Of a DNA stretch of 24,564 nucleotides, positions 1-22,376 are shown piece after piece. The stretch lies in IMG/VR virus record IMGVR_UViG_2563366949_000003; one strand, given 5' to 3'. Source of the stretch: a virus (taxonomy: Duplodnaviria; Heunggongvirae; Uroviricota; Caudoviricetes). Within the stretch, counting starts at the first letter, position 1, and each line of letters opens with the position of its first letter. The notes beneath the pieces are model-generated. The model did no database searches. It worked only from the letters and a program-made list of their open reading frames with translations, and was not told the DNA's origin. The position numbers and the translations under genes are program-made.

Positions 1-102
1 GCCCATCCGGGGTGTACTTCCGGAGACATTGCAGATGCTTTTGCAGGTTACTCACGGCAGCGCGTTCTGCAGTCAGCAAGCAAGTTACGTCAGAGTGGGC
101 GT

Positions 103-1492: not shown

Positions 1493-1511
1493 TCAAGAGG
1501 AGAAACGAAGT

Positions 1512-2354
1512 ATGAATAATCTGATGGTCATTGATGGTATTGAAGTTCGTCGTGATGCTTATGGGCGTTACAGCCTGAACGATCTGCATCGGGCTGCTGT
1601 TGCATCTGGTGCAAATGCCAGAACTAAGGAGCCGGGAAAGTTTCTTTCCAGCCAACAGATTACTGAGCTGGTTCAGGAATTGATCGATACCCAAAATTTG
1701 GGTGTCGGTTCATTCAATGAAACTACCCAAAATTTGGGTAGTAAACCAGTAAGTAAAATAGAAGGGCGGAATGGAGGAACGTATGTCTGCAAGGAACTGG
1801 TGTATGCCTATGCAATGTGGATCAGCCCGTCATTCCATCTGAAGGTGATCCGTACTTTCGATATGGTAACCAGCACACCGGAAAAATTATCCGGGCAGGC
1901 TGCTGACAAGATGCAGGCTGGCGTGATCCTGCTGGACTTTATGCGCCGGGAATTAAACCTGTCTAACTCATCAGTGCTTGGAGCCTGTCAGAAGCTTCAG
2001 GAGGCTGTTGGCTTACCGAATCTGGCACCGCGCTATGCCATTGATGCTCCTGCTGACGCGCCTGATGGCTCAAGTCGCCCCACGCTGTCGCTGAGTGCAC
2101 TGCTGAAACAGTATGGTATCCGCCTGACGGCTAATCAGGCATATCACCAGATGGTGAAGCTGGGGATCGTTGAACAACGCGAACGATACAGCCGTACCGC
2201 GATTAACAACATCAAAAAATTCTGGTCGCTGACCGCGAAAGGCTGCATGTTCGGCAAGAACATCACCAGTCCTGCAAATCCGCGCGAGACGCAGCCGCAT
2301 TTCTTCGAATCCCGATTCCCTGAGCTGTTAAAGCTGCTCGATACCGTTCATTGA
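1512..2354 (+). CDS. KilA-N domain protein (Roi-like DNA-binding / antirepressor-like)
   Basis: AGGAG RBS at 1497-1501, then ATG 1512. The N-terminus MNNLMVIDGIEVRRDAYGRYSLNDLHRA is typical of the KilA-N domain. The ORF track starts it at 1479, but 1512 is better supported. Confidence 0.7.
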   Translation: MNNLMVIDGIEVRRDAYGRYSLNDLHRAAVASGANARTKEPGKFLSSQQITELVQELIDTQNLGVGSFNETTQNLGSKPVSKIEGRNGGTYVCKELVYAYAMWISPSFHLKVIRTFDMVTSTPEKLSGQAADKMQAGVILLDFMRRELNLSNSSVLGACQKLQEAVGLPNLAPRYAIDAPADAPDGSSRPTLSLSALLKQYGIRLTANQAYHQMVKLGIVEQRERYSRTAINNIKKFWSLTAKGCMFGKNITSPANPRETQPHFFESRFPELLKLLDTVH

Positions 2355-2355
2355 G

Positions 2356-3351
2356 GTGACCGTGAGAGCACTACTGACCCCTGAAATTGCCCCGCGTATG
2401 GGGATCGTATTGTTCAGGCCAGGTTCAGAGCTGATGCCCCTGTTTATGCAGGGGCGTGTCCTGCTGGAGCCTGAGCCGGAACGTTATTCATCTTTCGCCA
2501 GTGGTGCCGTTCCGGCGGCATCACAACCGCTGGCGGATGATCCTGCCGTTCGGGCCGTGTTCCGCAATGAGGCAGTGATCCGTCGTGCTGGTGGCGTGGA
2601 ATGTCTTGAAAGCTGGTTACTTCGTGAAAAGGGCTGTCAGTGGCCTCATTCCGGATGGCACAGCGAGAACATGACCACAATGCGACACGCGCCGGGCGCA
2701 ATCCGTCTGTGTTGGCACTGCGATAACCAGTTGCGTGATCAGTTCACGGAACGGCTGGAATCAATGGCAACGGATAACTGTGCCCACTGGGTGTTATCTG
2801 TCGTGCGTCGGGATCTCGGTTTTGATGACAGTCACGTAGTGACAATGCCGGAACTGTGCTGGTGGCTGGTTCGTAATGACCTGGCGGATGCCTTACCGGA
2901 AAGTGCAGCCCGTAAGGCACTGAGATTACCGAAGCCTGTTGTGCCGTCTGTCACCCGGGAAAGTGACCTTGTGCCTTCGGTTCCTGCCACCAGCATCATC
3001 CAGGATAAAGCGAAAAAGGTGCTGGCGCTGAAAGTGGATCCGGAGTCGCCGGAGTCTTTTATGTTACGCCCAAAACGTCGCCGCTGGGTTAATGAAAAGT
3101 ACACGCGCTGGGTTAAGACACAGCCGTGTGCATGTTGTGGAAAGCCCGCTGATGATCCCCACCACCTGATAGGCCACGGTCAGGGTGGAATGGGTACAAA
3201 AGCGCATGACCTTTTTGTGTTGCCTTTGTGCAGAAAGCATCACGACGAGCTGCATGCGAATACCGTGGCATTTGAAGAGAATTATGGCTCCCAGCTGGAG
3301 CTGATATTTCGTTTTATCGATCGTGCGCTGGCAATAGGCGTACTGGCGTAA
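2356..3351 (+). CDS. ydfU: DUF968 family protein (YdfU-like) with C-terminal HNH-like Cys/His motif
   Basis: GTG start one base after the upstream stop. The C-terminus CACCGKPADDPHHLIGHG...CRKHHDELH looks like a zinc-binding HNH-like motif. Its position just upstream of Q matches Qin ydfU-quuQ. Confidence 0.65.
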   Translation: MTVRALLTPEIAPRMGIVLFRPGSELMPLFMQGRVLLEPEPERYSSFASGAVPAASQPLADDPAVRAVFRNEAVIRRAGGVECLESWLLREKGCQWPHSGWHSENMTTMRHAPGAIRLCWHCDNQLRDQFTERLESMATDNCAHWVLSVVRRDLGFDDSHVVTMPELCWWLVRNDLADALPESAARKALRLPKPVVPSVTRESDLVPSVPATSIIQDKAKKVLALKVDPESPESFMLRPKRRRWVNEKYTRWVKTQPCACCGKPADDPHHLIGHGQGGMGTKAHDLFVLPLCRKHHDELHANTVAFEENYGSQLELIFRFIDRALAIGVLA

Positions 3352-3364
3352 GTGGAGAACGAGC

Positions 3365-4117
3365 ATGAACCTTGAAGCTTTACCAAAATATTACTCCCCA
3401 AAATCGCCAAAATTGAGTGATGACGCACCGGCGACAGGCTCGGGTGGTTTAACAATAACAGATGTGATGGCTGCGCAGGGGATGGTGCAGTCGAAAGCTC
3501 CGCTTGGTTTTGCCTTATTCCTGGCAAAAGTTGGTGTTCAGGATCCTCAGTTTGCGATTGAAGGTCTGCTCAATTACGCGATGGCAATGGATAATCCGAC
3601 ATTGAACAAATTGAGTGAAGAAATCCGGTTACAGATCATCCCTTACCTTGTGAATTTTGCCTTTGCTGATTATTCCAGGTCTGCGGCAAGTAAGGCTCGC
3701 TGTGAGTATTGTGCTGGTACTGGATTTCATAATGTATTGCGCGAAGTGGTGAAACACTCCAGAAGTGGGGAATCTGTTATCAAGGAAGAGTGGGTGAAGG
3801 AACTATGTCAGCATTGCCATGGTAAGGGAGAAGTCAGCACAGCGTGCAGAGGGTGTAAGGGGAAAGGTATTGTCCTGGATGAAAAAAGAACCCGGCTTCA
3901 TAGCACGCCTGTTTATAAGGTTTGTGGGCGTTGCAATGGAAACCGGTTTAGTCGTTTACCAACGACACTGGCGCGGTGTCATGTCCAGAAGCTGGTACCA
4001 GACCTGACGGATTATCAGTGGTACAAAGGATATGCAGATGTCATTGATAAACTGGTTACAAAGTGCTGGCAGGAAGAAGCATATGCTGAGGTGCAATTAA
4101 GAAAAGTGACGAGATAA
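3365..4117 (+). CDS. quuQ: Late antiterminator Q (QuuQ type, 250 aa, multiple CxxC zinc motifs)
   Basis: The 250-aa product has three CxxC pairs (CEYCAGTG, CQHCHGKGE, CRGCKGKG) and matches the Qin-type Q antiterminator by length and position upstream of the lysis genes. Confidence 0.75.
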   Translation: MNLEALPKYYSPKSPKLSDDAPATGSGGLTITDVMAAQGMVQSKAPLGFALFLAKVGVQDPQFAIEGLLNYAMAMDNPTLNKLSEEIRLQIIPYLVNFAFADYSRSAASKARCEYCAGTGFHNVLREVVKHSRSGESVIKEEWVKELCQHCHGKGEVSTACRGCKGKGIVLDEKRTRLHSTPVYKVCGRCNGNRFSRLPTTLARCHVQKLVPDLTDYQWYKGYADVIDKLVTKCWQEEAYAEVQLRKVTR

Positions 4118-4367
4118 ATGATTTTCACCGAACGATGGCGACATAACGATTGTATTTTCTAAGGAAACGTGCAAAGAGTTTTCCAATGATGAGCCTTATA
4201 TGCATACCGGTGGAAAATATCAATAAGCCGCGCAGAGTGGTTTTTTTGTGGACATAAACTTTGTGCAGAACGGTAACCATTATGGTTGCCGTGAATGCAG
4301 TTTTTTTACATTGCTGGCTTTTTTAGATTTGTGTTAGTTCTTGATATTAACAAGAAGGGGAAAAGAC

Positions 4368-4469
4368 ATGCTAAAACGGCAGGATATGAAGGAAACGGTT
4401 ATGCGTGAATGTTCCAGTGTGATTAACCATATCATCTGGAGAAGCCATCCTGATGCAGGGAAGAGGTAA
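4368..4469 (+). CDS. Small ORF (33 aa), unknown
   Basis: A GGGGA RBS lies 8-9 nt upstream of ATG 4368; product MLKRQDMKETVMRECSSVINHIIWRSHPDAGKR. It is below the ORF-track length cutoff and has no recognised family. Confidence 0.2.
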   Translation: MLKRQDMKETVMRECSSVINHIIWRSHPDAGKR

Positions 4470-4832
4470 CAGTAACGCGCATCAATCAGGCTGCAAATAA
4501 ATGGCTTACGCCGGAAATCTGGCTATCGATGTATTACCGGTTTGTTACCCATGAAGAAAATTAAGGTGATAACGAAACTGATTTTATAGGTGTCTTGTCA
4601 GAGTGTTGCGATGAAACTTGTGTTGGCAGTGCAGGGAAAACAGTAGGATGAAAATTATAAATTGCTTTAAATTAGCTTGATTTTCCTCATGTTATGAGAT
4701 ATTTGTCTTATATTGCTGGTTAATTATGAAAATTTTTGTAAATCTACAGCAATAAAATCCATATTAATTAAAGCACTAGATGCGTTTCTGATTTGTGCAT
4801 GAAACATACATATCATAATGATTAATTGCATC

Positions 4833-4838
4833 TATAAT
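4833..4838 (+). promoter_or_regulatory. Candidate -10 hexamer TATAAT upstream of small-ORF pair
   Basis: A perfect TATAAT sits 40 nt upstream of ATG 4879 in a very AT-rich stretch. No convincing -35 was found. Confidence 0.2.
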
Positions 4839-4878
4839 TACAGATACAGCATTGTGCTGTTAAAAAACTGGAGTCCCC

Positions 4879-4986
4879 ATGAATACATTATATGTAAGTG
4901 ATTCAAATGAAAAATCTCATGACAGGAATAAAAACAATGAGGATAGTAAGGGTAAGGATAATAAAAAAGACAACCGGAAAGAGTAA
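4879..4986 (+). CDS. Small highly charged ORF (35 aa), unknown
   Basis: GGAG lies 8 nt upstream of ATG 4879; product MNTLYVSDSNEKSHDRNKNNEDSKGKDNKKDNRKE is Lys/Asp/Asn-rich and hydrophilic. Confidence 0.25.
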   Translation: MNTLYVSDSNEKSHDRNKNNEDSKGKDNKKDNRKE

Positions 4987-5021
4987 ATAATCTTTCCTGC
5001 ATAAAAATACTAGGGTGGAAT

Positions 5022-5141
5022 ATGTCAGAACATCCAGATTTTGATGACCGTAAGCCTGATGATGAGCCCGTTGAGCGTCCTGATGAGGGGCAACCATTGA
5101 ACCCTTTTTCACCGGATGATAAAAGAGATCCTATTATTTAG
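5022..5141 (+). CDS. Small acidic proline-rich ORF (39 aa), unknown
   Basis: GGTGG lies 5 nt upstream of ATG 5022; product MSEHPDFDDRKPDDEPVERPDEGQPLNPFSPDDKRDPII. A strong intrinsic terminator follows about 50 nt downstream. Confidence 0.3.
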   Translation: MSEHPDFDDRKPDDEPVERPDEGQPLNPFSPDDKRDPII

Positions 5142-5192
5142 ATATAGCAGAATATAGCCGTTTAAAGTAGGTTGTGTTTTGTTGCTATCCTT

Positions 5193-5221
5193 AAACCACC
5201 TCCACAGGAGGTGGTTTTTTA
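5193..5221 (+). terminator. Rho-independent terminator (11-bp stem AAACCACCTCC / GGAGGTGGTTT, U-tract)
   Basis: Perfect inverted repeat with a 4-nt loop, followed by TTTTTT. It lies between the plus-strand small ORFs and the convergent minus-strand ORF at 5278-5463. Confidence 0.6.
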
Positions 5222-5277
5222 CTAATGGAACATTAATTGGCAGATGTGATTGTGTACGACTTATGGGAGGCTTAAGA

Positions 5278-5463
5278 TTATTTTCTGCCAATAATAAAAC
5301 CAAGCGTTAACCCTATGCTTAGAGCAACCACCACGCTAGTCAGTGGATAATTTCTAAATTTATCTTTAACGTTTTCTTTGCCTCCCTGCAAAGCATCGTC
5401 AGCACATGATGCATATTTTTTGACAGTATTAACTATTTCGTTTTCAGATTGATTTGAAGTCAT
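5278..5463 (-). CDS. DUF883 (ElaB/YqjD/YgaM-like) C-tail-anchored small membrane protein
   Basis: The C-terminus NYPLTSVVVALSIGLTLGFIIGRK matches the ElaB-family tail anchor (hydrophobic helix ending GRK/GRR). The ATG at 5461-5463 gives 61 aa; a TTG at 5562 would give 94 aa, closer to typical family length. Confidence 0.45.
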   Translation of the reverse strand: MTSNQSENEIVNTVKKYASCADDALQGGKENVKDKFRNYPLTSVVVALSIGLTLGFIIGRK

Positions 5464-5916
5464 GTTTGAAGTCCTGATGTTAAGTGGCTTTTTAATTATA
5501 GCAGATATGCTTTCAATGATAGGGCGGAGAGTTGTTATTGAGGTGATACTATGGCCACTCAATCAACATTACATAAAATGACGTTTACTCCTGTTTGGCA
5601 CAGTAGCAGAATTTTGCTTCTGCTACTGAAGTCGCTTTAGCACTAGAATATGCAGATGGATAAAGCAGTTCAGCGTATGTACTGCGTCATGCATATCGGT
5701 CTTGCAGATATGACGAGAAGGGGAGACAAGGTGTGTGTAATGTAGAAGTCTTTAAAGTGCTGTCTGGGATAACTCTATACTGAAGTGCAATTGATAAAAG
5801 TAACACGATAAAGGTTTTTCAATGAAGATGGTAACGTGATGCTTGCATTTTTCAAAAAATATGGATAAAATTTTTTCAACGATGGGCTTTGTATACCCGA
5901 CGTTAAGAAAAAGTAG

Positions 5917-5941
5917 AAAACCCGCTGATGAGCGGGTTTTG
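5917..5941. terminator. Bidirectional hairpin terminator (AAAACCCGCT-GATG-AGCGGGTTTT)
   Basis: The stem is flanked by an A-run on one side and a T-run on the other, so it could terminate either strand. It lies about 290 nt downstream of cspF on the minus strand. Confidence 0.45.
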
Positions 5942-6232
5942 TGCTTTAAATGGGGCAATGGTAATGTTGAATCTCATCCCGGGACTCATGTCTGTTAACT
6001 TATTATTTAGCTGGTGACTTGGTTATTTGCCTGATGTTTAAAATGTTTTCTTCCAGTACAATGTCCCTAAACACAATGAGTCTGCTTATTATATTATTAG
6101 CAGAGCTATTACGGCCAAAGTACAGCATAAGCTTTTAAAGCCAGTCAACCAGTCATCAAGACAGACGGGGTTATTCATAAAAACTCTCCATGTGTGATCC
6201 GATGGGGCCTGAAATTAAAGCTTTAATATAGC

Positions 6233-6445
6233 TCATGAAAGGTAAACATTGGCAGCTGAAGGGCCACGCAGAGCATTTATCCGGCAAAATTCCACGCGTA
6301 ATCCGGTGGTAATTTCTTCTGCATCGCGGAGATTGAGCGCTGAAACATGAAGCTGGACATCGATACGACCATCGGATGGGGTGATAAGACCCTTGCCGCT
6401 TTTGCCGTCAAAGGTTTTGACAATTCCTGTCATTTTACGGGACAA
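6233..6445 (-). CDS. cspF: Cold-shock protein CspF-type paralog
   Basis: The 70-aa product [26 protein letters not shown]... is a cold-shock-domain protein of the CspF/CspH subtype, divergent from cspB as in Qin. Confidence 0.85.
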
Positions 6446-6745
6446 AAAAATTCCTTAATACTGATAACTTGGCGCACTATACACACTTTCCTGAAGAAAG
6501 CTATAGTTTTTTGATGGGGTTGAAGATGGCTGGATGTCTAAAATAAACATTGCTTCATATGTTCAACTATGCGTTAATGATTGCGTCGGTTTGAAGAACA
6601 GACGATATACGAAGTAGTTTACTAAAGCAGTTCTCATTTCAGGTGTTATTCACTTATTCCTTCTTTGAGTCTCTCCAATTAAGTACGAAGTCGTTTCTGT
6701 TATACAAGCCATTTATGCCGAAAGGCTCAAGTTAAGGAATGTAGA

Positions 6746-6961
6746 ATGTCAAATAAAATGACTGGTTTAGTAAAATGGTTTAACGCTGATAAAGGTTTTG
6801 GCTTTATTTCTCCTGTTGATGGTAGTAAAGATGTGTTTGTGCATTTTTCTGCGATTCAGAATGATAATTTTCGAACCTTATTTGAAGGTCAAAAGGTTAC
6901 CTTCTCTGTAGAGAGTGGTGCTAAAGGTCCTGCAGCAGCAAATGTCATAATTACTGATTAA
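6746..6961 (+). CDS. cspB: Cold-shock protein CspB
   Basis: The 71-aa product [51 protein letters not shown]... carries the RNP1/RNP2 motifs and is near-identical to E. coli CspB. A long upstream leader is typical of csp genes. Confidence 0.9.
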
Positions 6962-7242
6962 AATTAATAGTTTGTCTGTATACGATAACGAAGAAGGCTG
7001 ATGCCTGAGTGGAGATACAGACAGAGTGGTGAATATTGGATCTCTTTAATAAATAGTAAGGAGATCCAATACATGAAACAATGGCCAGCATATTTGGCAA
7101 TAACTTAATCAGGAAAAGTATGCTAACCATTGTGGTGAAGTGCAGGTTTGCTGCATGAATAGTTTTACAGCAGAAGCTAACTGCTAGCATAGCAAAACAA
7201 AGTGCGTAAGTGGATGACTCCCACAAAAAGCACCACAATATT

Positions 7243-7267
7243 AAACCCGCTCAGGCGGGTTTTTTAT
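7243..7267. terminator. Hairpin terminator (AAACCCGC-TCAG-GCGGGTTTTTT)
   Basis: GC stem followed by TTTTTTATT on the plus strand. It sits between convergent cspB (+) and the minus-strand zinc-ribbon ORF. Confidence 0.55.
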
Positions 7268-7324
7268 TATCTGCTTTAAATATGTTATTAAAATATAAAA
7301 AATACTTGTTACGAATAAAATCAA

Positions 7325-7495
7325 TCAAGCTACAGCTTTAAGATTTGTCTGGAATACTTTGTTGCAATGAGGGCAGATCAAAAGAGCACCTTTTTGTACT
7401 CTTGAAAAACTGTGTTCTGACTCTTGGGTGCAGTTTGGGCAGGAACATTTAACGAGATAATTACGGCGTGATTTTGAGTCTTTACGTTCTGACAT
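7325..7495 (-). CDS. Small zinc-ribbon protein (CxCPxC...CPHC), unknown function
   Basis: AGGAAA lies upstream of the ATG at 7493-7495. The 56-aa product MSERKDSKSRRNYLVKCSCPNCTQESEHSFSRVQKGALLICPHCNKVFQTNLKAVA has two Cys pairs about 20 residues apart. The track's longer form (to 7546) lacks an RBS. Confidence 0.4.
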   Translation of the reverse strand: MSERKDSKSRRNYLVKCSCPNCTQESEHSFSRVQKGALLICPHCNKVFQTNLKAVA

Positions 7496-7713
7496 AGGCT
7501 TTTCCTGTATAAATGGCCGTATACAGTACACTAAATGTGAAAACATATCTCGTATTATTATTTAATATATGATTTTCTTTTAAAATAATTACCCACATTT
7601 TTAATGTGTCTGTTTTTTAGCGCCGTTGAGAACAACGTTTGCTATAAAAACTAACCCATAGACTCCGATCTTTTCAAACATATTGCACCATCTGTGTACA
7701 TCGGGGTGAGGAT

Positions 7714-7929
7714 ATGAAATCAATGGATAAGTTAACAACAGGTATCGCCTATGGCACATCGGCGGGTAATGCTGGTTTCTGGGCATTGCAGTTACTCGAT
7801 AAAGTAACTCCGTCACAGTGGGCTGCAATCGGTGTGCTGGGTAGTCTGGTTTTTGGCCTGCTGACATATCTGACAAACCTTTATTTCAAGATTAAAGAAG
7901 ACAGGCGTAAGGTTGCGAGAAGAGAGTAA
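7714..7929 (+). CDS. essQ: Holin, phage 21 S-type (class II)
   Basis: The 71-aa product [31 protein letters not shown]... has two transmembrane segments and a charged C-terminus, matching S21/EssQ-type holins. Confidence 0.85.
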
Positions 7930-7933
7930 TCCA

Positions 7934-8485
7934 ATGACTCAAGACTATGAACTGGTTGTGAAAGGAGTTCGCAATTTTGAGAATAAAGTGGCGGTAACTG
8001 TAGCCTTACGGGACAAAAAACACTTTGACGGTGAAATTTTTGACCTGGACATCTCGCTGGACCGTGTTGAAGGTGCCGCGCTGGAGTTTTATGAGGCAGC
8101 AGCCAGAAGGAGCATCAGACAGGTCTTCCTGGATGTTGCTGCCGGGTTATGTGAAGGGGATGAGCAGTCGCCGGAAAAGCGCCCCATAATTTTAGAGGCG
8201 CAGAATGTGTGGATAACCTACAAAGGAAAGCTACCGGGAAGAATTACTGGTTCTCTGAAGACGCCACCGACGGCATTGCGGTCAGAAAAAGATGATATTG
8301 AATCGCCCATTGAAAAACTGGAGGGCAGCGTCGCTGATCTGAATAAAAAATTGTCGGTGCTGATTCCTTCTGAAGATGAAAAAAAACGCCGCGATGAGCA
8401 GTTTGCGGCGTTTTACGATTATTGCATTGAAGTTACTCGCAGGAATTTTGTGAAGATTTTTGAGGAGGGTAAATCTCTTCAGTAA
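7934..8485 (+). CDS. DUF1327 (YdfR-like) protein with C-terminal extension
   Basis: ATG 7934 follows the holin stop. The N-terminus MTQDYELVVKGVRNFENK... resembles Qin YdfR, but this ORF is 183 aa versus about 100 aa recalled for YdfR. Its 3' end overlaps the convergent ORF by 53 nt and contains a hairpin. Confidence 0.5.
   Translation: MTQDYELVVKGVRNFENKVAVTVALRDKKHFDGEIFDLDISLDRVEGAALEFYEAAARRSIRQVFLDVAAGLCEGDEQSPEKRPIILEAQNVWITYKGKLPGRITGSLKTPPTALRSEKDDIESPIEKLEGSVADLNKKLSVLIPSEDEKKRRDEQFAAFYDYCIEVTRRNFVKIFEEGKSLQ
8379..8414 (-). terminator. Intrinsic terminator for minus-strand ORF 8433-8693 (GC stem CGCCGC/GCGGCG, then U8 on the minus strand)
   Basis: The inverted repeat 8387-8392 / 8405-8410 is followed on the minus strand by the complement of an 8-A run. 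It lies about 20 nt past the minus-strand stop. Confidence 0.5.
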
Positions 8486-8693
8486 GCTTATTGGCGGACG
8501 CTGCAATTAATTCAGGAAGGTCCGCAAGGTCATCTGTCAGTGGATATGATGAAAAATCGGCGGCAGTTCTGTTAAGAAGCGCTTTAACTAATTCCTTTTC
8601 CTTCTCCGGCAACAAGTTGATTAGAGCTACGACTGCTTGCCTGAGTGCGATTAAATCAGCAAAAGTTTGTTTTGGTAGATTTGTGTAATCCAT
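8433..8693 (-). CDS. Hypothetical acidic protein (86 aa), convergent to the late operon inside the lysis cassette
   Basis: AGAGG lies 6 nt upstream of the ATG at 8691-8693, and a strong terminator follows the stop. The product MDYTNLPKQTFADLIALRQAVVALINLLPEKEKELVKALLNRTAADFSSYPLTDDLADLPELIAASANKLTEEIYPPQKSSQNSCE has no recognised family. Confidence 0.4.
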   Translation of the reverse strand: MDYTNLPKQTFADLIALRQAVVALINLLPEKEKELVKALLNRTAADFSSYPLTDDLADLPELIAASANKLTEEIYPPQKSSQNSCE

Positions 8694-8806
8694 AGTCGCC
8701 TCTGTGTTTATCAGACTGACATCCTCCTCCCGCCAGTGCCCATCACTGGTGAGGTAAGATTTAACATATCCGGGGATTTGAAGCCGATAAATCCTGATAA
8801 ATATCC

Positions 8807-9834
<1,028 letters not shown>

Positions 9835-10085
9835 ATTAATATTAAATCGGATTATTTTTAGCGCTGAATGTGAAATTTAAATAAAAAGGACTCTTCCATG
9901 AGTCAAAATCCTTGAAATCTTAAGGGTAAGATAAAAGGTCATTAGACAGAATGACACGTTTTATTAATAAATAAAGCTATTGTTTCATTCGTGTGTTTTT
10001 CTTTACAAAAGTAATCCTTGCTATGGTTGGTTAATCATGCGTTAATGGTGTTCTGGTTTGTTACAAAATTATCTGAAGCAGTCAT

Positions 10086-10094
10086 TGTTATAAT
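10086..10094 (+). promoter_or_regulatory. Candidate extended -10 promoter element (TGTTATAAT) for cspI
   Basis: A perfect TGnTATAAT lies about 105 nt upstream of the cspI ATG, consistent with the long leaders of csp genes. It has not been tested. Confidence 0.3.
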
Positions 10095-10197
10095 TTTATT
10101 ATTTGTACCTCTTGAGATTTCCTTGTTGGTTTTTCTCTCTGATATTTTTTTTCGGACCATTCTGCCCAAGGGCTAACTTCTTCAAAAGGTAATAATG

Positions 10198-10410
10198 ATG
10201 TCTAACAAAATGACTGGTTTAGTGAAATGGTTTAACCCTGAAAAAGGTTTTGGTTTCATCACGCCGAAAGATGGTAGCAAAGATGTGTTTGTCCATTTCT
10301 CAGCTATTCAGAGCAACGATTTCAAAACGTTAACTGAGAATCAGGAAGTCGAATTTGGTATTGAGAACGGACCTAAAGGCCCCGCGGCTGTTCATGTTGT
10401 GGCACTTTGA
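10198..10410 (+). CDS. cspI: Cold-shock protein CspI
   Basis: The 70-aa product [70 protein letters not shown] matches CspI as recalled. Confidence 0.9.
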
Positions 10411-10609
10411 GGTAGAAAATATTACAAACCATATTCACTTTAGATGCCCGTGTTGCCATGGTTCTCAGTATAGAACATCATCTTTTGATGTTTCTGACAG
10501 GAATCCTTTCGGGGCAAAATGTATCTTTTGTAAATCAATGATGATTACATTTGATAATATTTCACAATACTTAAATGTTAGCCGTCTGTCGTTAGATTTA
10601 AGAAAGTGA
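10394..10609 (+). CDS. Candidate small zinc-ribbon ORF (CPCCHG...CIFC) downstream of cspI
   Basis: An in-frame ATG at 10394 overlaps the cspI 3' end, and the stop lies 6 nt before the terminator at 10615. The RBS is weak and the start uncertain; the track's TTG start is at 10355. Confidence 0.3.
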
Positions 10610-10614
10610 AAATG

Positions 10615-10638
10615 AAGGCTCCTTCGGGAGCTTTTTTG
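10615..10638 (+). terminator. Rho-independent terminator (GGCTCC-TTCG-GGAGC then TTTTTTG)
   Basis: GC stem with a UUCG tetraloop followed by a U-tract, about 200 nt downstream of cspI. Confidence 0.6.
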
Positions 10639-10681
10639 CTTAGTGTCTAGTCGATGGATACTCACATATTACGGTAACATT

Positions 10682-10912
10682 ATGAAAAAAATAATAGTTT
10701 TTTTTAACTCTGAACCAGCAATGGTAGTGCCAGTGATGACCGGAGTTAACACCATCATGCGTGAATATCCAAATGGCGAAACAACACACCTCACTGTAAT
10801 GGCTGCAGGGTTTCCATCTCTGACCGGAGATCATAAAGTCATTTATGTAGCAGCGGATCGACATGTAACTTCAGAAGAAATTCTGGAAGCAGCAATGAGA
10901 CTCTTGAATTGA
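10682..10912 (+). CDS. Hypothetical protein (76 aa)
   Basis: ATG 10682 is the first ATG of the ORF and has no clear RBS. The stop TGA 10910-10912 lies 4 bp before the IS2 left end and is native, not created by the insertion. No family recognised. Confidence 0.3.
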   Translation: MKKIIVFFNSEPAMVVPVMTGVNTIMREYPNGETTHLTVMAAGFPSLTGDHKVIYVAADRHVTSEEILEAAMRLLN

Positions 10913-11007
10913 TTTGTAGACTGGCCCCCTGAATCTCCAGACAACCAATATCACTTATTTAAGTGATAGTCTTAATACTAGTTTTTAGACTAGTCATTGG
11001 AGAGCAG

Positions 11008-11373
11008 ATGATTGATGTCTTAGGACCGGAGAAACGCAGACGGCGTACCACACAGGAAAAGATCGCAATTGTTCAGCAGAGCTTTGAACCAGGGATGACG
11101 GTCTCCCTCGTTGCCCGGCAACACGGTGTGGCAGCCAGCCAGTTATTTCTCTGGCGTAAGCAATACCAGGAAGGAAGTCTTACTGCTGTCGCCGCCGGAG
11201 AACAGGTTGTTCCTGCCTCTGAACTTGCTGCCGCCATGAAGCAGATTAAAGAACTCCAGCGCCTGCTCGGCAAGAAAACGATGGAAAATGAACTCCTCAA
11301 AGAAGCCGTTGAATATGGACGGGCAAAAAAGTGGATAGCGCACGCGCCCTTATTGCCCGGGGATGGGGAGTAA
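11008..11373 (+). CDS. insC: IS2 transposase OrfA (InsC)
   Basis: The 121-aa product [41 protein letters not shown]... contains a helix-turn-helix. The slippery A6G at 11325-11331 is at its 3' end. Confidence 0.9.
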
Positions 11374-12236
11374 GCTTAGTCAGCCGTTGTCTCCGGGTGT
11401 CGCGTGCGCAGTTGCACGTCATTCTCAGACGAACCGATGACTGGATGGATGGCCGCCGCAGTCGTCACACTGATGATACGGATGTGCTTCTCCGTATACA
11501 CCATGTTATCGGAGAGCTGCCCACGTATGGTTATCGTCGGGTATGGGCGCTGCTTCGCAGACAGGCAGAACTTGATGGTATGCCTGCGATCAATGCCAAA
11601 CGTGTTTACCGGATCATGCGCCAGAATGCGCTGTTGCTTGAGCGAAAACCTGCTGTACCGCCATCGAAACGGGCACATACAGGCAGAGTGGCTGTGAAAG
11701 AAAGTAATCAGCGATGGTGCTCTGACGGGTTCGAGTTCCGCTGTGATAACGGAGAAAAACTGCGAGTCACGTTCGCGCTGGACTGCTGTGACCGTGAGGC
11801 ACTGCACTGGGCGGTCACTACGGGCGGCTTCAACAGTGAAACAGTACAGGACGTCATGCTGGGAGCGGTGGAACGCCGCTTCGGCAACGAGCTTCCGGCG
11901 TCTCCAGTAGAGTGGCTGACGGATAATGGTTCATGCTACCGGGCTAATGAAACACGGCAGTTTGCCCGGATGTTGGGGCTTGAACCGAAGAGCACGGCGG
12001 TGCGGAGTCCGGAGAGTAACGGCATAGCAGAGAGCTTCGTGAAAACGATAAAGCGTGACTACATCAGTGTCATGCCCAAACCAGACGGGTTAACGGCAGC
12101 AAAGAACCTTGCAGAGGCGTTCGAGCATTATAACGAATGGCATCCGCATAGTGCACTGGGTTATCGCTCGCCACGGGAATATCTGCGGCAGCAAGCCAGT
12201 AATGGGTTAAGTGATAACAGGTGTCTGGAAATATAG
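11331..12236 (+). CDS. insD: IS2 transposase OrfB (InsD; DDE catalytic domain, made as InsCD fusion by -1 frameshift)
   Basis: The 301-aa ORF is in the -1 frame relative to insC and overlaps it. It carries an IS3-family DDE integrase core. Confidence 0.9.
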
Positions 12237-12420
12237 GGGCAAATCCAATTTGATTCTAATGCATTGATAATAAATGATAATCATCTTTATCTGTTTGTGT
12301 GAAATTTAGACCGTCGTATGTTGATTATTGCGATGTTTCATCTTATCTTTTATACGTTTGCTCCATATAATTGACACTACTGTGTACCAGGAAAGTCATA
12401 ACAGACTAAAAGAGGAAATG

Positions 12421-12594
12421 ATGAACATTGAAGAGTTAAAAACAAAAACAGAAGCAGATATTTCTGAATATATAACAAAAAAAATCATTGAGCTTAAGAA
12501 AAAGACCGGGAAAGAAGTTACCAGTATCCAGTTTACTGCACGGGAAAAAATGACTGGTCTTGAAAGCTATGATATCAAGATTGATTTAATCTAG
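12421..12594 (+). CDS. gnsB: GnsA/GnsB family protein
   Basis: AGAGGA RBS precedes the ATG. The 57-aa product MNIEELKTKTEADISEYITKKIIELKKKTGKEVTSIQFTAREKMTGLESYDIKIDLI matches the GnsA/GnsB family. Confidence 0.8.
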   Translation: MNIEELKTKTEADISEYITKKIIELKKKTGKEVTSIQFTAREKMTGLESYDIKIDLI

Positions 12595-12650
12595 TCTGTT
12601 TATAGTATTAGCATCAATTTCTTGTCAGATGCTATTCAACAATACAATTT

Positions 12651-12682
12651 ACCCATAAACCTCGTTTTTACGGGGTTTTGTT
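12651..12682 (+). terminator. Putative terminator downstream of gnsB (AAACCTCG-loop-CGGGGTTTTGTT)
   Basis: Imperfect stem with one G-U pair, followed by a T-rich tract. Confidence 0.35.
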
Positions 12683-12889
12683 ATATTTAAACATTACCGA
12701 ATAGATATAAATCTCGATAGTCGGTGGTATTGGTTGTGTGACAATACCTAGTCTTTTCGGTATGCCTGGAGAGAATACAAACGACAGATTATGTAAGGGA
12801 AACGCGCTGAAACTTTCACACTTTCATGCTGAGTGATTTGACGTTATATTTTTAGCCGCAAGTGAAGAGCAAACGCATGGAGCGACAAA

Positions 12890-13096
12890 ATGCATAAAGA
12901 TCAATACACTGATGACTCATCCCTGGATCAGGTCCGTGTAAAAACTATGCTCACTAGCACCATTTCTATGAGTTATCCGGATGTTGTAATTGCATGTATA
13001 GAACATCAAGTGTCTCTGGAAGCATTCAGGGCAATTGAGGCAGCGTTGGTGAAGCACGATAAGAATTCGAAGGATTATTCCCTGGTGGTTGACTGA
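12890..13096 (+). CDS. Hypothetical small protein (68 aa), possibly YbcW/YnfO-like
   Basis: The [71 protein letters not shown] sits where DLP12 and Qin carry small uncharacterised genes. The family assignment is from memory only. Confidence 0.35.
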
Positions 13097-13346
13097 TCAC
13101 CATAACTGCTAACCATTCAAACTATTTCACCTGTGACAGAGTCAATATCGCATTCTGTCACTGTCAGGCTAATACAGAACTACAATTCAACTACTGCAAT
13201 GCCTCGTAATTAGGTGAATTTACAATATCGTCCTGTTCGGATGCCAACTGCATTTCTGAGGATAAGGCGTTTATGACTCACATATTTGTCCCACACGCTC
13301 GCCAGTCCTGTGCGGGGTGGGAGGGGAGGTAAAGAAACCGGGATGT

Positions 13347-13541
13347 TCATCCATCATCACTTTGGATTGATGTATATGCTCTCTTTTCTGACGTTAGTCT
13401 CCGACGGCAGGCTTCAATGACCCAGGCTGAGAAATTCCCAGACCCTTTTTGCTCAAGAGCGATGTTAATTTGTTCAATCATTTGGTTAGGAAAGCGGATG
13501 TTGCGGGTTGTTGTTCTGCGGGTTCTGTTCTTCGTTGACAT
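13347..13541 (-). CDS. DUF3950 (YlcI-like) small protein
   Basis: The 64-aa product MSTKNRTRRTTTRNIRFPNQMIEQINIALEQKGSGNFSAWVIEACRRRLTSEK... resembles YlcI, which lies just upstream of the terminase region in DLP12. Confidence 0.55.
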   Translation of the reverse strand: MSTKNRTRRTTTRNIRFPNQMIEQINIALEQKGSGNFSAWVIEACRRRLTSEKRAYTSIQSDDG

Positions 13542-13740
13542 GAGGTTGCCCCGTATTCAGTGTCGCTGATTTGTATTGTCTGAAGTTGTTTTTACGTTAA
13601 GTTGATGCAGATCAATTAATACGATACCTGCGTCATAATTGATTATTTGACGTGGTTTGATGGCGTAGATGCACGTTGTGACATGTAGATGATAATTATT
13701 ATCATTTTGCGGGTCCTTTCCGGCGATCCGACAGGTTACG

Positions 13741-13752
13741 GGGCGGCGACCT
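13741..13752 (+). other. cosN cohesive-end site (lambda 12-nt overhang GGGCGGCGACCT), within the cos region ~13700-13905
   Basis: CGATCCGACAGGTTACG|GGGCGGCGACCTCGCGGGTTTTCGCTATTTATGAAAATTTTCC matches the junction of the lambda right and left ends. The nu1 start lies 189 bp downstream, as in lambda. Confidence 0.85.
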
Positions 13753-13929
13753 CGCGGGTTTTCGCTATTTATGAAAATTTTCCGGCTTAAGGCGTTTCCG
13801 TTCTTCTTCGTCGTAACTTAATGTTTTTATTTAAAATACCCCCTGAAAAGAAAGGAAACGACAGGTGCTGAAAACGAACTTTTGGGCCTCTGTCGTTTCC
13901 TTTCTCTGTTTTGGGCCGTGGAATGAACA

Positions 13930-14449
13930 ATGGAAGTCAACAAAAAGCAGCTGGCTGACATTTTCGGTGCGAGTATCCGTACCATTCAGAACTGGCAGGA
14001 ACAGGGAATGCCCGTTCTGCGAGGCGGTGGCAAGGGTAATGAGGTGCTTTATGACTCTGCCGCCGTTATAAAATGGTATGCCGAAAGGGATGCTGAAATT
14101 GAGAACGAAAAGCTGCGCCGGGAGGTTGAAGAACTGCTGCAGGCCAGCGAGACAGATCTCCAGCCAGGGACTATTGAGTACGAACGCCATCGACTTACGC
14201 GTGCGCAGGCCGATGCACAGGAGCTGAAAAATGCCAGAGACTCCGCTGAAGTGGTGGAAACCGCATTCTGTACTTTCGTGCTGTCGCGTATCGCAGGTGA
14301 AATTGCCAGTATTCTCGACGGGATCCCCCTGTCGGTGCAGCGGCGTTTTCCGGAACTGGAAAACCGACATGTTGATTTCCTGAAACGGGATATCATCAAA
14401 GCCATGAACAAAGCAGCCGCGCTGGATGAACTGATACCGGGGTTGCTGA

Positions 14450-14475
<26 letters not shown>
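13930..14475 (+). CDS. nu1: Terminase small subunit Nu1
   Basis: The 181-aa product MEVNKKQLADIFGASIRTIQNWQEQGMPVLRGGGKGNEVLYD... is essentially identical to lambda gpNu1. Confidence 0.95.
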
Positions 14476-18156
<3,681 letters not shown>

Positions 18157-18176
<20 letters not shown>

Positions 18177-19476
18177 TCTCCCGCATATTACCAGTATGGC
18201 CTTTAATGAGCCGCTGATGCTTGAACCCGCCTATGCGCGGGTTTTCTTTTGTGCGCTTGCAGGCCAGCTTGGGATCAGCCGCCTGACGGATGCGGTATCC
18301 GGCGACAGCCTGACTGCCGGAGAGGCACCCGCGGCGCTGGCGTTATCCGTTGATGATGACGGACCACGGCAGGCCCGCAGTTATCAGGTCATGAACGGCA
18401 TCGCCGTGCTGCCGGTGTCCGGCACGCTGGTCAGTCGGACGCGAGCGCTGCAGCCGTATTCGGGGATGACCGGTTACAACGGCATTATCGCCCGTCTGCA
18501 ACAGGCTGCCAGCGACCCGATGGTGGACGGCATTCTGCTCGATATGGATACGCCAGGCGGGATGGTGGCAGGGGCATTTGACTGCGCTGACATCATCGCC
18601 CGTGTGCGTGACATAAAGCCGGTATGGGCGCTGGCCAATGACATGAACTGCAGCGCAGGTCAGCTGCTTGCCAGTGCCGCCTCCCGGCGTCTGGTCACGC
18701 AGACCGCCCGGACAGGCTCCATCGGCGTCATGATGGCTCACAGTAATTACGGTGCTGCGCTGGAGAAACAGGGCGTGGAAATCACGCTGATTTACAGCGG
18801 CAGCCATAAGGTGGATGGCAACCCCTACAGCCATCTACCGGATGATGTCCGGGAAACACTGCAGTCCCGGATGGATGCAACCCGCCGGATGTTTGCACAG
18901 AAGGTGTCGGCATATACCGGCCTGTCCGTGCAGGCTGTGCTGGATACCGAGGCTGCAGTGTACAGCGGTCAGGAGGCCATTGATGCCGGACTGGCTGATG
19001 AACTTGTTAACAGTACCGATGCGATCACCATCATGCGTGATGCACTGGATGCACGTAAATCCCGTCTCTCAGGAGGGCGAATGACCAAAGAGACTCAATC
19101 AACAACTGTTTCAGCCACTGCTTCGCAGGCTGACGTTACTGGCGTGGTGCAAGCGACGGAGGGCGAGAACGCCAGCGCTGCGCAGCCGGACGTGAACGCG
19201 CAGATCACCGCAGCTGTTGCGGCAGAAAACAGTCGCATTATGGGGATCCTCAACTGTGAGGAGGCTCACGGACGCGAAGAACAGGCACGCGTGCTGGCCG
19301 AAACCCCCGGTATGACCGTGGAAACGGCCCGCCGCATTCTGGCAGTTGCACCACAGAGTGCACAGGCGCGCAGTGACACTGCGCTGGATCGTCTGATGCA
19401 GGGGGCACCGGCACCGCTGGCTGCAGGTAACCCGGCATCTGATGCCGTTAACGATTTGCTGAACACACCAGTGTAA
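18157..19476 (+). CDS. C: Head protease / minor capsid protein C
   Basis: GTG start at 18157 (VTAELRNLPHI...) gives the 439-aa lambda-like gpC. The track's 18022 start is an in-frame read-through of the B 3' end. Confidence 0.9.
18871..19476 (+). CDS. nu3: Scaffolding protein Nu3 (in-frame internal start within C)
   Basis: An internal ATG at 18871 in the C frame (MDATRRMFAQ...) matches the lambda nu3 arrangement. Confidence 0.75.
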   Translation: MDATRRMFAQKVSAYTGLSVQAVLDTEAAVYSGQEAIDAGLADELVNSTDAITIMRDALDARKSRLSGGRMTKETQSTTVSATASQADVTGVVQATEGENASAAQPDVNAQITAAVAAENSRIMGILNCEEAHGREEQARVLAETPGMTVETARRILAVAPQSAQARSDTALDRLMQGAPAPLAAGNPASDAVNDLLNTPV

Positions 19477-19485
19477 GGGATGTTT

Positions 19486-19818
19486 ATGACGAGCAAAGAA
19501 ACCTTTACCCATTACCAGCCGCTGGGCAACAGTGACCCGGCACATACGGCAACCGCGCCCGGCGGATTGAGTGCGAAAGCGCCTGCAATGACCCCGCTGA
19601 TGCTGGATACCTCCACCCGTAAGCTGGTTGCGTGGGATGGCACCACCGACGGTGCTGCCGTTGGCATTCTGGCGGTTGATGCTGACCAGACCAGCACCAC
19701 GCTGACGTTCTACAAGTCCGGCACGTTCCGTTATGAGGATGTGCTCTGGCCGGAGGCTGCCAGCGACGAGACGAAGAAACGGACCGCGTTTGCCGGAACG
19801 GCAATCAGCATCGTTTAA
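19486..19818 (+). CDS. D: Head decoration protein D
   Basis: The 110-aa product [27 protein letters not shown]... matches lambda gpD. Confidence 0.95.
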
Positions 19819-19837
19819 CCTTACCCTTCATCACTAA

Positions 19838-19861
19838 AGGCCGCCTGTGCGGCTTTTTTTA
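19838..19861 (+). terminator. Hairpin with U-tract between D and E (GGCCGC-CTGT-GCGGCTTTTTTT)
   Basis: Inverted repeat followed by seven T. It probably modulates the D/E expression ratio within the late operon. Confidence 0.5.
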
Positions 19862-19872
19862 CGGGATTTTTT

Positions 19873-20898
19873 ATGTCGATGTACACAACCGCCCAGCTGC
19901 TGGCGGCAAATGAGAAGAAATTTAAGTTTGATCCGCTGTTTCTGCGTCTCTTTTTCCGTGAGAGCTATCCCTTCACCACGGAGAAAGTCTATCTCTCACA
20001 AATTCCGGGACTGGTAAACATGGCGCTGTACGTTTCGCCGATTGTTTCCGGTGAGGTTATCCGCTCCCGTGGCGGCTCCACCTCTGAATTTACACCGGGA
20101 TATGTCAAGCCGAAGCATGAGGTGAATCCGCAGATGACCCTGCGTCGCCTGCCGGATGAAGATCCGCAGAATCTGGCGGACCCGGCTTACCGCCGCCGTC
20201 GCATCATCATGCAGAACATGCGAGACGAAGAGCTGGCCATTGCTCAGGTCGAAGAGATGCAGGCCGTTTCTGCCGTGCTTAAGGGCAAATACACCATGAC
20301 CGGTGAAGCCTTCGATCCGGTTGAAGTGGATATGGGCCGCAGTGCGGCGAACAACATCACACAGTCCGGTGGTACGGAGTGGAGCAAGCGTGACAAGTCC
20401 ACGTATGACCCGACCGACGATATCGAAGCCTATGCGCTGAACGCCAGCGGCGTGGTGAATATCATCGTGTTTGATCCGAAAGGCTGGGCGCTGTTCCGTT
20501 CCTTCAAAGCCGTCAAGGAGAAGCTGGATACCCGTCGCGGCTCTCATTCCGAGCTGGAGACAGCGGTAAAAGACCTGGGCGAAGCGGTGTCCTATAAGGG
20601 GATGTATGGCGATACGGCGATCGTCGTGTATTCCGGACAGTACGTGGAAAACGACGTCAAAAAGAACTTCCTTCCGGACAACACGATGGTGCTGGGGAAC
20701 ACTCAGGCACGCGGTCTGCGCACCTATGGCTGCATTCAGGATGCGGACGCACAGCGCGAAGGCATTAACGCCTCTGCCCGCTACCCGAAAAACTGGGTGA
20801 CCACCGGCGATCCGGCGCGTGAGTTCACCATGATTCAGTCAGCACCGCTGATGCTGCTGGCTGACCCTGATGCGTTCGTGTCCGTACAACTGGCGTAA
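19873..20898 (+). CDS. E: Major capsid protein E
   Basis: The 341-aa product is near-identical to lambda gpE. Confidence 0.95.
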   Translation: MSMYTTAQLLAANEKKFKFDPLFLRLFFRESYPFTTEKVYLSQIPGLVNMALYVSPIVSGEVIRSRGGSTSEFTPGYVKPKHEVNPQMTLRRLPDEDPQNLADPAYRRRRIIMQNMRDEELAIAQVEEMQAVSAVLKGKYTMTGEAFDPVEVDMGRSAANNITQSGGTEWSKRDKSTYDPTDDIEAYALNASGVVNIIVFDPKGWALFRSFKAVKEKLDTRRGSHSELETAVKDLGEAVSYKGMYGDTAIVVYSGQYVENDVKKNFLPDNTMVLGNTQARGLRTYGCIQDADAQREGINASARYPKNWVTTGDPAREFTMIQSAPLMLLADPDAFVSVQLA

Positions 20899-20900
20899 TC

Positions 20901-20927
20901 ATGGCCCTTCGGGGCCATTTTCTCTTT
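20901..20927 (+). terminator. Hairpin between E and FI (ATGGCCC-TTCG-GGGCCAT then T-rich)
   Basis: Perfect 7-bp stem with a UUCG loop followed by TTTCTCTTT. Confidence 0.45.
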
Positions 20928-20939
20928 GTGGAGGAGTCC

Positions 20940-21335
20940 ATGACGAAAGATGAACTGATTGCCCGTCTTCAGGTGCTGGGTGAGCAACTGAACCGTGATG
21001 TCAGCCTGACGGGGACGAAAGAAGAACTGGTGCTCCGTGTGGCAGAGCTGGAAGAGGAGCTTGATGACACGGATGACGCTGCCGGTCAGGACACATCTGT
21101 CAGCCCGGAAAATGCGCTGACCGGACATGAAAATGAGGTTGTATCAGCGCAGCCGGATACCGTGACTGATACGGCTGATCTGGTCACGGTTGTGGCACTG
21201 GTGACGCTGCATACTGATGCACTTCACGCCACGCGGGATGAGGCTGTGGCATTTGTGCTGCCGGGAACGGCGTTCCGTGTCTCTGCCGGTGTGGCAGCTG
21301 AAATGACAGAACGTGGCCTGGCCAGAATGCAATAA
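20940..21335 (+). CDS. FI: DNA-packaging protein FI
   Basis: GGAGGAG RBS precedes ATG 20940 (MTKDELIARLQVLGEQLNRDV...). It matches lambda gpFI and is more divergent than the neighbouring genes. Confidence 0.9.
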   Translation: MTKDELIARLQVLGEQLNRDVSLTGTKEELVLRVAELEEELDDTDDAAGQDTSVSPENALTGHENEVVSAQPDTVTDTADLVTVVALVTLHTDALHATRDEAVAFVLPGTAFRVSAGVAAEMTERGLARMQ

Positions 21336-21346
21336 CGGGAGGCGCT

Positions 21347-21700
21347 GTGGCTGATTTCGATAACCTGTTCGATGCTGCCATTGCCCGCGCCGATGAAACG
21401 ATACGCGGGTACATGGGAACGTCAGCCACCATGACATCCGGTGAGCAGTCCGGCGCTGTGATACGTGGTGTTTTTGATGACCCTGAAAATATCAGCTATG
21501 CCGGACAGGGCGTGCGCGTTGAAGGCTCCAGCCCGTCCCTGTTTGTCCGGACTGATGATGTGCGGCAACTGCGGCGTGGAGACACGCTGACCATCGGTGA
21601 GGAAAACTTCTGGATAGACCGGGTATCGCCGGATGATGGCGGAAGCTGTCATCTCTGGCTTGGGCGTGGCGTTCCGCCTGCCGTTAACCGTCGCCGTTGA
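21347..21700 (+). CDS. FII: Head completion protein FII
   Basis: GTG start; the 117-aa product MADFDNLFDAAIARADETIRGYMG... matches lambda gpFII. Confidence 0.95.
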   Translation: MADFDNLFDAAIARADETIRGYMGTSATMTSGEQSGAVIRGVFDDPENISYAGQGVRVEGSSPSLFVRTDDVRQLRRGDTLTIGEENFWIDRVSPDDGGSCHLWLGRGVPPAVNRRR

Positions 21701-21821
21701 AAGGGGGATGTATGGCCATAAAAGGTCTTGAGCAGGCCGTTGAAAGGGGGATGTATGGCCATACAGGGTCTTGAGCAGGCCGTTGAAAGGGGGATGTATG
21801 GCCATACAGGGTCTTGAGCAG
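21693..21821 (+). repeat. Tandem direct repeat, 3 x 43 bp (GCCGTTGAAAGGGGGATGTATGGCCATA[A/C]A[A/G]GGTCTTGAGCAG), spanning the FII stop and the Z start
   Basis: Units occupy 21693-21735, 21736-21778 and 21779-21821. Units 2 and 3 are identical and differ from unit 1 at two bases. Each unit contains AAGGGGGA followed by ATGGCC; lambda has one copy as recalled. Confidence 0.9.
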
Positions 21822-22376
21822 GCCGTTGAAAACCTCAGCCGTATCAGCAAAACGGCGGTTCCCGGTGCCGCCGCAATGGCCATTAACCGCGTTGCTTCAT
21901 CCGCGATATCGCAGTCGGCGTCACAGGTTGCCCGTGAGACAAAGGTACGCCGGAAACTGGTAAAGGAAAGGGCCAGGCTGAAAAGGGCCACGGTCAAAAA
22001 TCCGCAGGCCAGAATCAAAGTTAACCGGGGGGATTTGCCCGTAATCAGGCTGGGTAACGCGCGGGTTGTCCTGTCCCGACGCAGGCGTCGTAAAAAGGGG
22101 CAGCGTTCATCCCTGAAAGGTGGCGGCAGCGTGCTTGTGGTGGGAAACCGTCGTATTCCCGGCGCGTTTATTCAGCAACTGAAAAATGGCCGGTGGCATG
22201 TCATGCAGCGTGTGGCCGGGAAAAACCGTTACCCCATTGATGTGGTGAAAATCCCGATGGCGGTGCCGCTGACCACGGCGTTTAAACAGAATATTGAGCG
22301 GATACGGCGTGAACGTCTTCCGAAAGAGCTGGGCTATGCGCTGCAGCATCAACTGAGAATGGTAATAAAGCGATGA
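21798..22376 (+). CDS. Z: Tail completion protein Z
   Basis: The ATG at 21798 in the third repeat unit gives a 192-aa product (MAIQGLEQAVENLSRISKTAVPG...) matching lambda gpZ. The track's 21771 start is a TTG read-through. Confidence 0.9.
   Translation: MAIQGLEQAVENLSRISKTAVPGAAAMAINRVASSAISQSASQVARETKVRRKLVKERARLKRATVKNPQARIKVNRGDLPVIRLGNARVVLSRRRRRKKGQRSSLKGGGSVLVVGNRRIPGAFIQQLKNGRWHVMQRVAGKNRYPIDVVKIPMAVPLTTAFKQNIERIRRERLPKELGYALQHQLRMVIKR

Follow-up and report, generated by a model that had tools for sequence, protein, structure and literature searches.

The window, by which we mean the whole stretch of viral DNA analysed here (24,564 nucleotides of the IMG/VR virus record IMGVR_UViG_2563366949_000003), carries the late genes of a tailed-phage prophage and, among them, one copy of the insertion sequence IS2 (Table 1). 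The gene for the Q-type antiterminator, the lysis cassette, IS2 and the terminase genes all lie on the + strand, with IS2 downstream of Q and the lysis genes and upstream of the terminase genes. By this annotation, IS2 is situated in an accessory island, rich in AT, that separates the lysis genes from the terminase genes, and none of the genes around it is broken. The element stands out in base composition, with 53-59 % GC against 26-44 % in the surrounding island. On its right-hand side, gnsB starts 173 bp past the end of IS2 and has kept these 173 upstream base pairs attached.

Table 1. Features of the late region around IS2 (coordinates in the window)
Feature	Coordinates	Strand	Remarks
ydfT/Q, Q-type antiterminator	3365-4117	+	
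Accessory stretch with cspF and cspB	between Q and holin	+	from the annotation of the CEA212U prophage and of PhiR63_1
Holin	before lysozyme	+	
Lysozyme	8807-9340	+	
rzpQ	9337-9834	+	
cspI	10195-10410	+	followed by ynfQ
Intrinsic terminator hairpin after cspI-ynfQ	10617-10637	+	GGCUCC-UUCG-GGAGCU followed by U6; 280 bp upstream of IS2
ynfN, accessory ('moron') gene, intact	10682-10912	+	named ynfN in the CEA212U prophage and in PhiR63_1
Target-site duplication ATTTG, left copy	10912-10916		shares its first base with the ynfN stop TGA
IS2 (IS3 family), complete, 1331 bp	10917-12247	+	starts TAGACTGGCCCCC, ends GGGGCAAATCCA
IRL, left inverted repeat, 42 bp	10917-10958	+	begins TAGACTGGCCCCC; length from PMC3299598
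orfA (insC), 121 aa, helix-turn-helix DNA-binding protein/repressor	11008-11373	+	Pfam HTH_Tnp_1, E = 1.8e-19; NCBIfam IS2 repressor TnpA
A6G slippery heptamer A AAA AAG, predicted -1 frameshift site	11325-11331	+	codon phase checked
orfB (insD), catalytic part of the transposase	11331-12236 (open)	+	Pfam rve, rve_3 and HTH_21; NCBIfam IS2 TnpB
IRR, right inverted repeat, 41 bp	12207-12247	+	ends GGGGCAAATCCA; length from PMC3299598
Target-site duplication ATTTG, right copy	12248-12252		
gnsB, intact	12421-12594	+	Pfam GnsAB_toxin, E = 2e-33
Intrinsic terminator after gnsB	12657-12686	+	
Small ORF, then ylcI/ynfO	after gnsB		ylcI/ynfO on the - strand
Nu1-like small terminase	13930-14475	+	
Terminase large subunit	14450-16375	+	followed by portal, head and tail genes

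Among non-coding features, a search of the whole window against Rfam returned two matches only, both to the cspA thermoregulator, and nothing at IS2. The two matches are full-length (6585-7024 and 10040-10456, with 159 and 110 bits) and sit in the 5′ leaders of the prophage cold-shock genes cspB and cspI. No tRNA genes were found in the window, and folding of the IS2 junctions gave RNA structure that is not above chance (z about 0).

A first-pass annotation, made from the letters of the window, had described the element as a complete IS2 of 1331 bp with both of its ends, with intact insC and insD and with a slippery A6G sequence. Each of these statements is upheld. The 12-nt ends, TAGACTGGCCCC and GGGGCAAATCCA, are those of the 14 other IS2 copies with which we compared them, and repeat detection picked up the inverted-repeat arms at 10926-10957 and 12208-12239. 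Published work gives the lengths of the IS2 ends as 42 and 41 bp, identifies IRL as the recipient end and describes the A6G window (PMC3299598). Both reading frames are open and in the right phase: orfA reads the codons GCA AAA AAG in frame 0 at the heptamer, and orfA and orfB overlap in 0/-1 phase. A -1 shift at the heptamer is predicted to yield an OrfAB fusion of 409 aa without interruption. This fusion passes the curated cut-offs of the NCBIfam profiles for IS2 TnpB (709.4 bits, cut-off 597), for the IS3-family transposase transpos_IS3 (281.9 bits, cut-off 160) and for IS2 TnpA (238.8 bits, cut-off 229), and the catalytic triad D240, D306 and E342, read from the sequence, has the DD(35)E spacing with a lysine at E+7.

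Transposition of IS2 follows a two-step pathway by way of a figure-of-eight and a minicircle, in which the junction promoter Pjunc uses a -35 element in IRR and requires a 17-bp spacer (PMC3299598). The present copy has an outward-facing -35 sequence TGGAAA within IRR (12226-12231) and a TAGACT in IRL, predicted to stand 17 bp apart if the two ends were joined with a 1-bp spacer. These features identify the element as a genuine IS2 with its structure intact. Its subtype is a common one other than that of K-12, and the element is presumably still mobile.

The position of the element with respect to its neighbours was also correctly given in the first-pass annotation: IS2 starts 4 bp after the stop codon of the ORF at 10682-10912 (ynfN, whose TGA occupies 10910-10912), it lies upstream of gnsB, and its transposase genes are co-directional with late transcription. 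The duplication begins with the A of the stop codon and so leaves both the reading frame of ynfN and its stop untouched. The same annotation had read the ATTTG on either side of IS2 as a 5-bp target duplication and the insertion as clean and probably recent, and had suggested looking for homologous prophages without IS2 that carry a single ATTTG. Such prophages exist. A 1000-bp empty site rebuilt from the two flanks and one ATTTG has matches of 100 % identity along its whole length in at least 16 complete E. coli genomes, and PhiR63_1, a temperate phage that has been isolated, matches it just as perfectly. The closest case is E. coli CEA212U, which holds the same prophage free of IS2. Window positions 1-10916 are 99.97 % identical and positions 12248-21788 are 100 % identical to this sister prophage, where the left and right arms abut and overlap by exactly 5 bp, ATTTG. 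Because ATTTG is single at the empty site, its repetition around IS2 is no chance match.

The junction itself is private to the window. Among 5,426 complete E. coli genomes none contains it as one aligned piece, and an exact 33-mer over the left junction has no match in species-representative genomes or metagenome contigs. Since IS2 is identical to copies elsewhere, the arms are nearly identical to those of an IS-free sister prophage and the junction is private, the event is dated as recent. We therefore regard the insertion as real, clean and recent.

Comparison with other copies of the element places it in a defined subtype. Copies in eight E. coli records are 100 % identical to the window IS2 along all 1331 bp. 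Among these records is CEA212U, which bears its identical IS2 at another chromosomal locus; a copy elsewhere of the type found in CEA212U is a plausible kind of donor. As a reference we used the IS2 of K-12 (insC/insD; named by PGAP 'IS3-like element IS2 family transposase', WP_088895425.1), from which the window copy differs by 30 nucleotide mismatches (2.3 %) and 8 amino acid changes in OrfAB. The two share the length of 1331 bp, the 12-nt termini, the IRL/IRR architecture, the 0/-1 arrangement of orfA and orfB, the A6G heptamer, the DD(35)E triad and the 5-bp target duplication; unlike the K-12 element, the window subtype is named by PGAP just 'IS3 family transposase'. The distance to a third subtype (WP_085959875.1) amounts to another 30 mismatches. 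The window subtype also occurs in Escherichia phage PhiR11_1 (PV340547.1, 49,016 bp), an isolated lambdoid temperate phage. Its IS2 differs from that of the window by 4 mismatches, with an identical OrfAB and, unlike the window copy, lies near the end of the record in another region, outside the interval between lysis and terminase genes. PhiR11_1 thus demonstrates that lambdoid phages can bear IS2 and still propagate.

An insertion in this position adds to the distance that late transcription has to cover. From Q to the terminase genes, a scan for + strand terminator-like sites gave 4225 (the site after Q, spanning 4225-4243), 5393, 7140, 7243, 7624 and 12657. The scan had put the hairpin at 10617-10637 on the - strand; on folding, it behaves as a + strand terminator (-13 kcal/mol, z = -2.35). 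Within IS2 itself (10917-12247) the scan found no + strand terminator-like site, Rho-dependent termination being of a kind that cannot be scored from sequence. The same layout of terminators and genes, with no IS2, is found in isolated phages. Because intrinsic terminators are already present in the IS-free phage, the packaging genes must be reached by Q antitermination, and polymerase modified by Q should be resistant to terminators. From this dependence on Q and from the lack of a + strand terminator in IS2, late transcription is expected to proceed across the element with at most a partial loss. Read-through of IS2 is more likely than the polarity that the first-pass annotation had considered. 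In the literature searched, nothing of use was found on polarity of IS2 or on antitermination.

Genome size leads to a similar expectation. PhiR63_1 measures 47,976 bp, and the addition of 1,336 bp would bring it to about 49.3 kb, still within the packaging range of lambda. The prophage probably stays largely functional, and in the lysogen the insertion is probably close to neutral.

The possibility that IS2 drives transcription outward into gnsB was considered separately. IS2 is known to supply the -35 element of fusion promoters at ampC, acrEF and neoR (PMC9330008). At the 17-bp spacing from the TGGAAA of IRR, the flank of the window offers TTTGAT as a -10 element, which agrees at 4 of 6 positions, the conserved A at position 2 being absent. 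This hybrid promoter (TGGAAA-17-TTTGAT) is weak on inspection by hand, and a promoter scan of the junction between IS2 and gnsB found none on the + strand. We rejected it as a candidate; a strong fusion promoter toward gnsB is unlikely.

We then asked how often IS2 occurs at this place in other genomes. Within joining distance of the ATTTG site, IS2 is present in the + orientation in 19 other genomes and in the - orientation in 26, a total of 45, these being counts of phylogenetically non-independent genomes that overstate the number of events. A first search had returned the + orientation only. This apparent orientation bias was a search artefact: aligned pieces join on one strand only, and the 26 - strand cases emerged with a chimeric query in which IS2 was reversed. 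As a control, the same chimeric queries were placed at a position within the portal gene of this prophage family. This portal region occurs in even more genomes than the IS2 target region; the queries gave 0 and 1 genomes.

Part of this recurrence concerns the very same 5 bp. In the strains H8, YZMc17-1, EC17CM12, B7A and TW10573, single-piece matches place IS2 at the same ATTTG in the - orientation. The copies at ATTTG belong to three subtypes, 30-58 mismatches apart, represented by the window (+), by H8 (-) and by B7A and TW10573 (-). Three subtypes at one ATTTG imply at least three independent insertions. Across the island, 24 insertions that we fetched resolve into 18 distinct sites, from -972 to +954 relative to the stop of ynfN, and at four of the 5-bp targets (AGTGA, AATGG, ATTTG and ATCAT) IS2 occurs in either orientation. 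All but one of these 24 other mapped insertions have 5-bp duplications, the exception being accompanied by an adjacent deletion. No usable target consensus could be derived from the 18 sites; the centre of the 5-bp target is A or T in 15 of them, a mild preference against a background of 63 % A+T. None of the phage records that carry the region has an IS in this island, their number being small (n = 7).

Clustering of this sort has been described for IS2 before. Its target choice is non-random and tied to intrinsically curved DNA (Lewis et al. 2012, PMC3299598), and that paper cites an IS2 'hot target' in phage P1 (Sengstag, Shepherd & Arber 1983) and non-random insertion into hemB (Lewis et al. 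1994). IS2 clustering has also been seen during a long-term culture experiment (PMC7858067). The evidence from the island comes from natural genomes and from the lysis-to-terminase region of lambdoid prophages, whereas the P1 and hemB cases reportedly come from selection experiments. The insertions in P1 reportedly form a cluster within a short segment of phage DNA and show no clear consensus, and those in the island do likewise. Re-use of a site in both orientations was seen in the present data set only.

It is possible, at slightly worse than even odds in our judgement, that the island in prophages of the Qin and PhiR63_1 type, some 2 kb flanked by rzpQ and the gene of the small terminase, is a true hot target of IS2, in which particular 5-bp positions are hit repeatedly, in both orientations and by different subtypes. 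Weaker selection against insertions in the island, and not target choice, could explain part of its excess over the portal gene.

Several individual insertions in and near the island deserve mention for their own sake. In strain E94, IS2 (segment 101-1431) interrupts the stem of the hairpin that terminates cspI-ynfQ, at the target GCTCC and reference position -294; lying within the stem, it should destroy the terminator. In strain SEV4, an IS2 in the - orientation (segment 204-1534) at AGTGA lacks a duplication, and about 13 bp of adjacent ynfN sequence are gone, a gap that suggests an IS2-adjacent deletion. Unlike SEV4, another strain has a + strand IS2 at AGTGA with a normal duplication. In Qin-like prophages of other E. 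coli, IS1, IS3 and the IS66-family elements ISEc22 and ISEc43 are annotated within a few kb of gnsB, so the island gathers more than IS2.

Our reading of the locus, to which we give a probability of roughly 0.9, is that a resident IS2 of a common non-K-12 subtype recently transposed into a lambda-like prophage, in its AT-rich accessory island, with a probably near-neutral effect and with the genes left intact. In the course of events that we propose, a resident copy would have moved by the copy-out/paste-in route, via a minicircle, into a prophage of the PhiR63_1/mEp460 type. Its target would have been the ATTTG that shares its first base with the end of the ynfN stop codon. The duplication of this ATTTG, together with the element itself, would have lengthened by 1,336 bp the path of Q-modified RNA polymerase to the packaging, head and tail genes. 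The site would have been chosen by a preference of IS2 for the region and not by selection for a function.

One alternative is selection for a function. The insertion might have been favoured as a block of late transcription that uncouples lysis from virion production, a form of domestication, or as a change of gnsB expression by outward or read-out transcription. Such a reading would account for the recurrence of IS2 in the island (45 genomes, a count that overstates the number of events, against 1 at the portal control), and it can draw on the precedent of the fusion promoters at ampC, acrEF and neoR and on the IRR -35 sequence that points to gnsB. What makes it improbable is the pattern of the insertions, which occupy 18 sites in both orientations and fall also inside ynfN and gnsB; sites and orientations so scattered mean that no single regulatory geometry is favoured. 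At the window junction, moreover, the -10 candidate lacks its A at position 2, the scan gave no + strand promoter and the 173 bp upstream of gnsB are intact, while a block of late transcription is at odds with the terminator resistance expected of Q-modified polymerase from established lambda biology.

Two further alternatives concern the history of the sequence. Copies of IS2 in prophages can last long, and many Qin-like remnants bear IS elements, so that the window copy could be an old one inherited within the prophage lineage; we hold this to be very improbable, given a junction found in no other of the 5,426 genomes nor in the remaining collections, flanks that match an IS-free sister prophage and an IS2 of which 100 % identical copies exist at other loci. 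IS elements are also the commonest source of misjoins, and an assembly could have placed a repeat element at the wrong locus. To this we attach hardly any credence: both ends of IS2 are exact, the ATTTG site is occupied by IS2 in five other complete genomes, and the single-copy ATTTG is perfectly duplicated, which a misjoin would not bring about. Recent transposition of a resident IS2 is the reading that we retain. Nothing was found against the identification, and the soft spots are the functional inferences.

The element is a known one and the event an ordinary one. What is new is the proof by the empty site, the subtype, and the recurrence of IS2 in the island and at the same 5-bp site; to the first-pass annotation, the analysis adds that the IS2 is of a non-K-12 subtype diverged by 2.3 % and that its site is a recurrent target. 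For annotation, the locus can be entered as a real, intact and recently moved IS2 with undamaged prophage genes on both sides. It provides one more IS in a possibly functional temperate phage that could take it to new hosts, a point of little weight alone. The recurrent island and 5-bp site are a small but usable lead on target choice in the IS3 family. If the hot target is true and is due to DNA structure or nucleoid proteins and not to selection, the natural insertions would form a data set on how IS2 chooses its targets, and if it is true, IS2 would preferentially load onto temperate phages at places where the harm is small.

The sister prophage and the right-hand part of the window offered some further observations. 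The IS2-free prophage of CEA212U (NZ_CP166707.1, 4982077-5025000) lies beside yjjG, at the yjjG-prfC locus. It appears complete, from integrase to tail fibre genes, with the exception of a truncated ydfR-family gene after the holin. The window has a 43-bp tandem repeat at 21693-21831 (3.2 copies, 97 % match), which covers the last part of the gene for the FII-like head-tail joining protein as well as the ribosome-binding site and initial codons of the gene for the Z-like tail protein. Two short decoy ORFs, both of which start with MAI(K/Q)GLEQAVE, arise from the copies of the repeat that lie upstream. The CEA212U prophage has one copy of the repeat fewer, which makes the window 43 bp longer.
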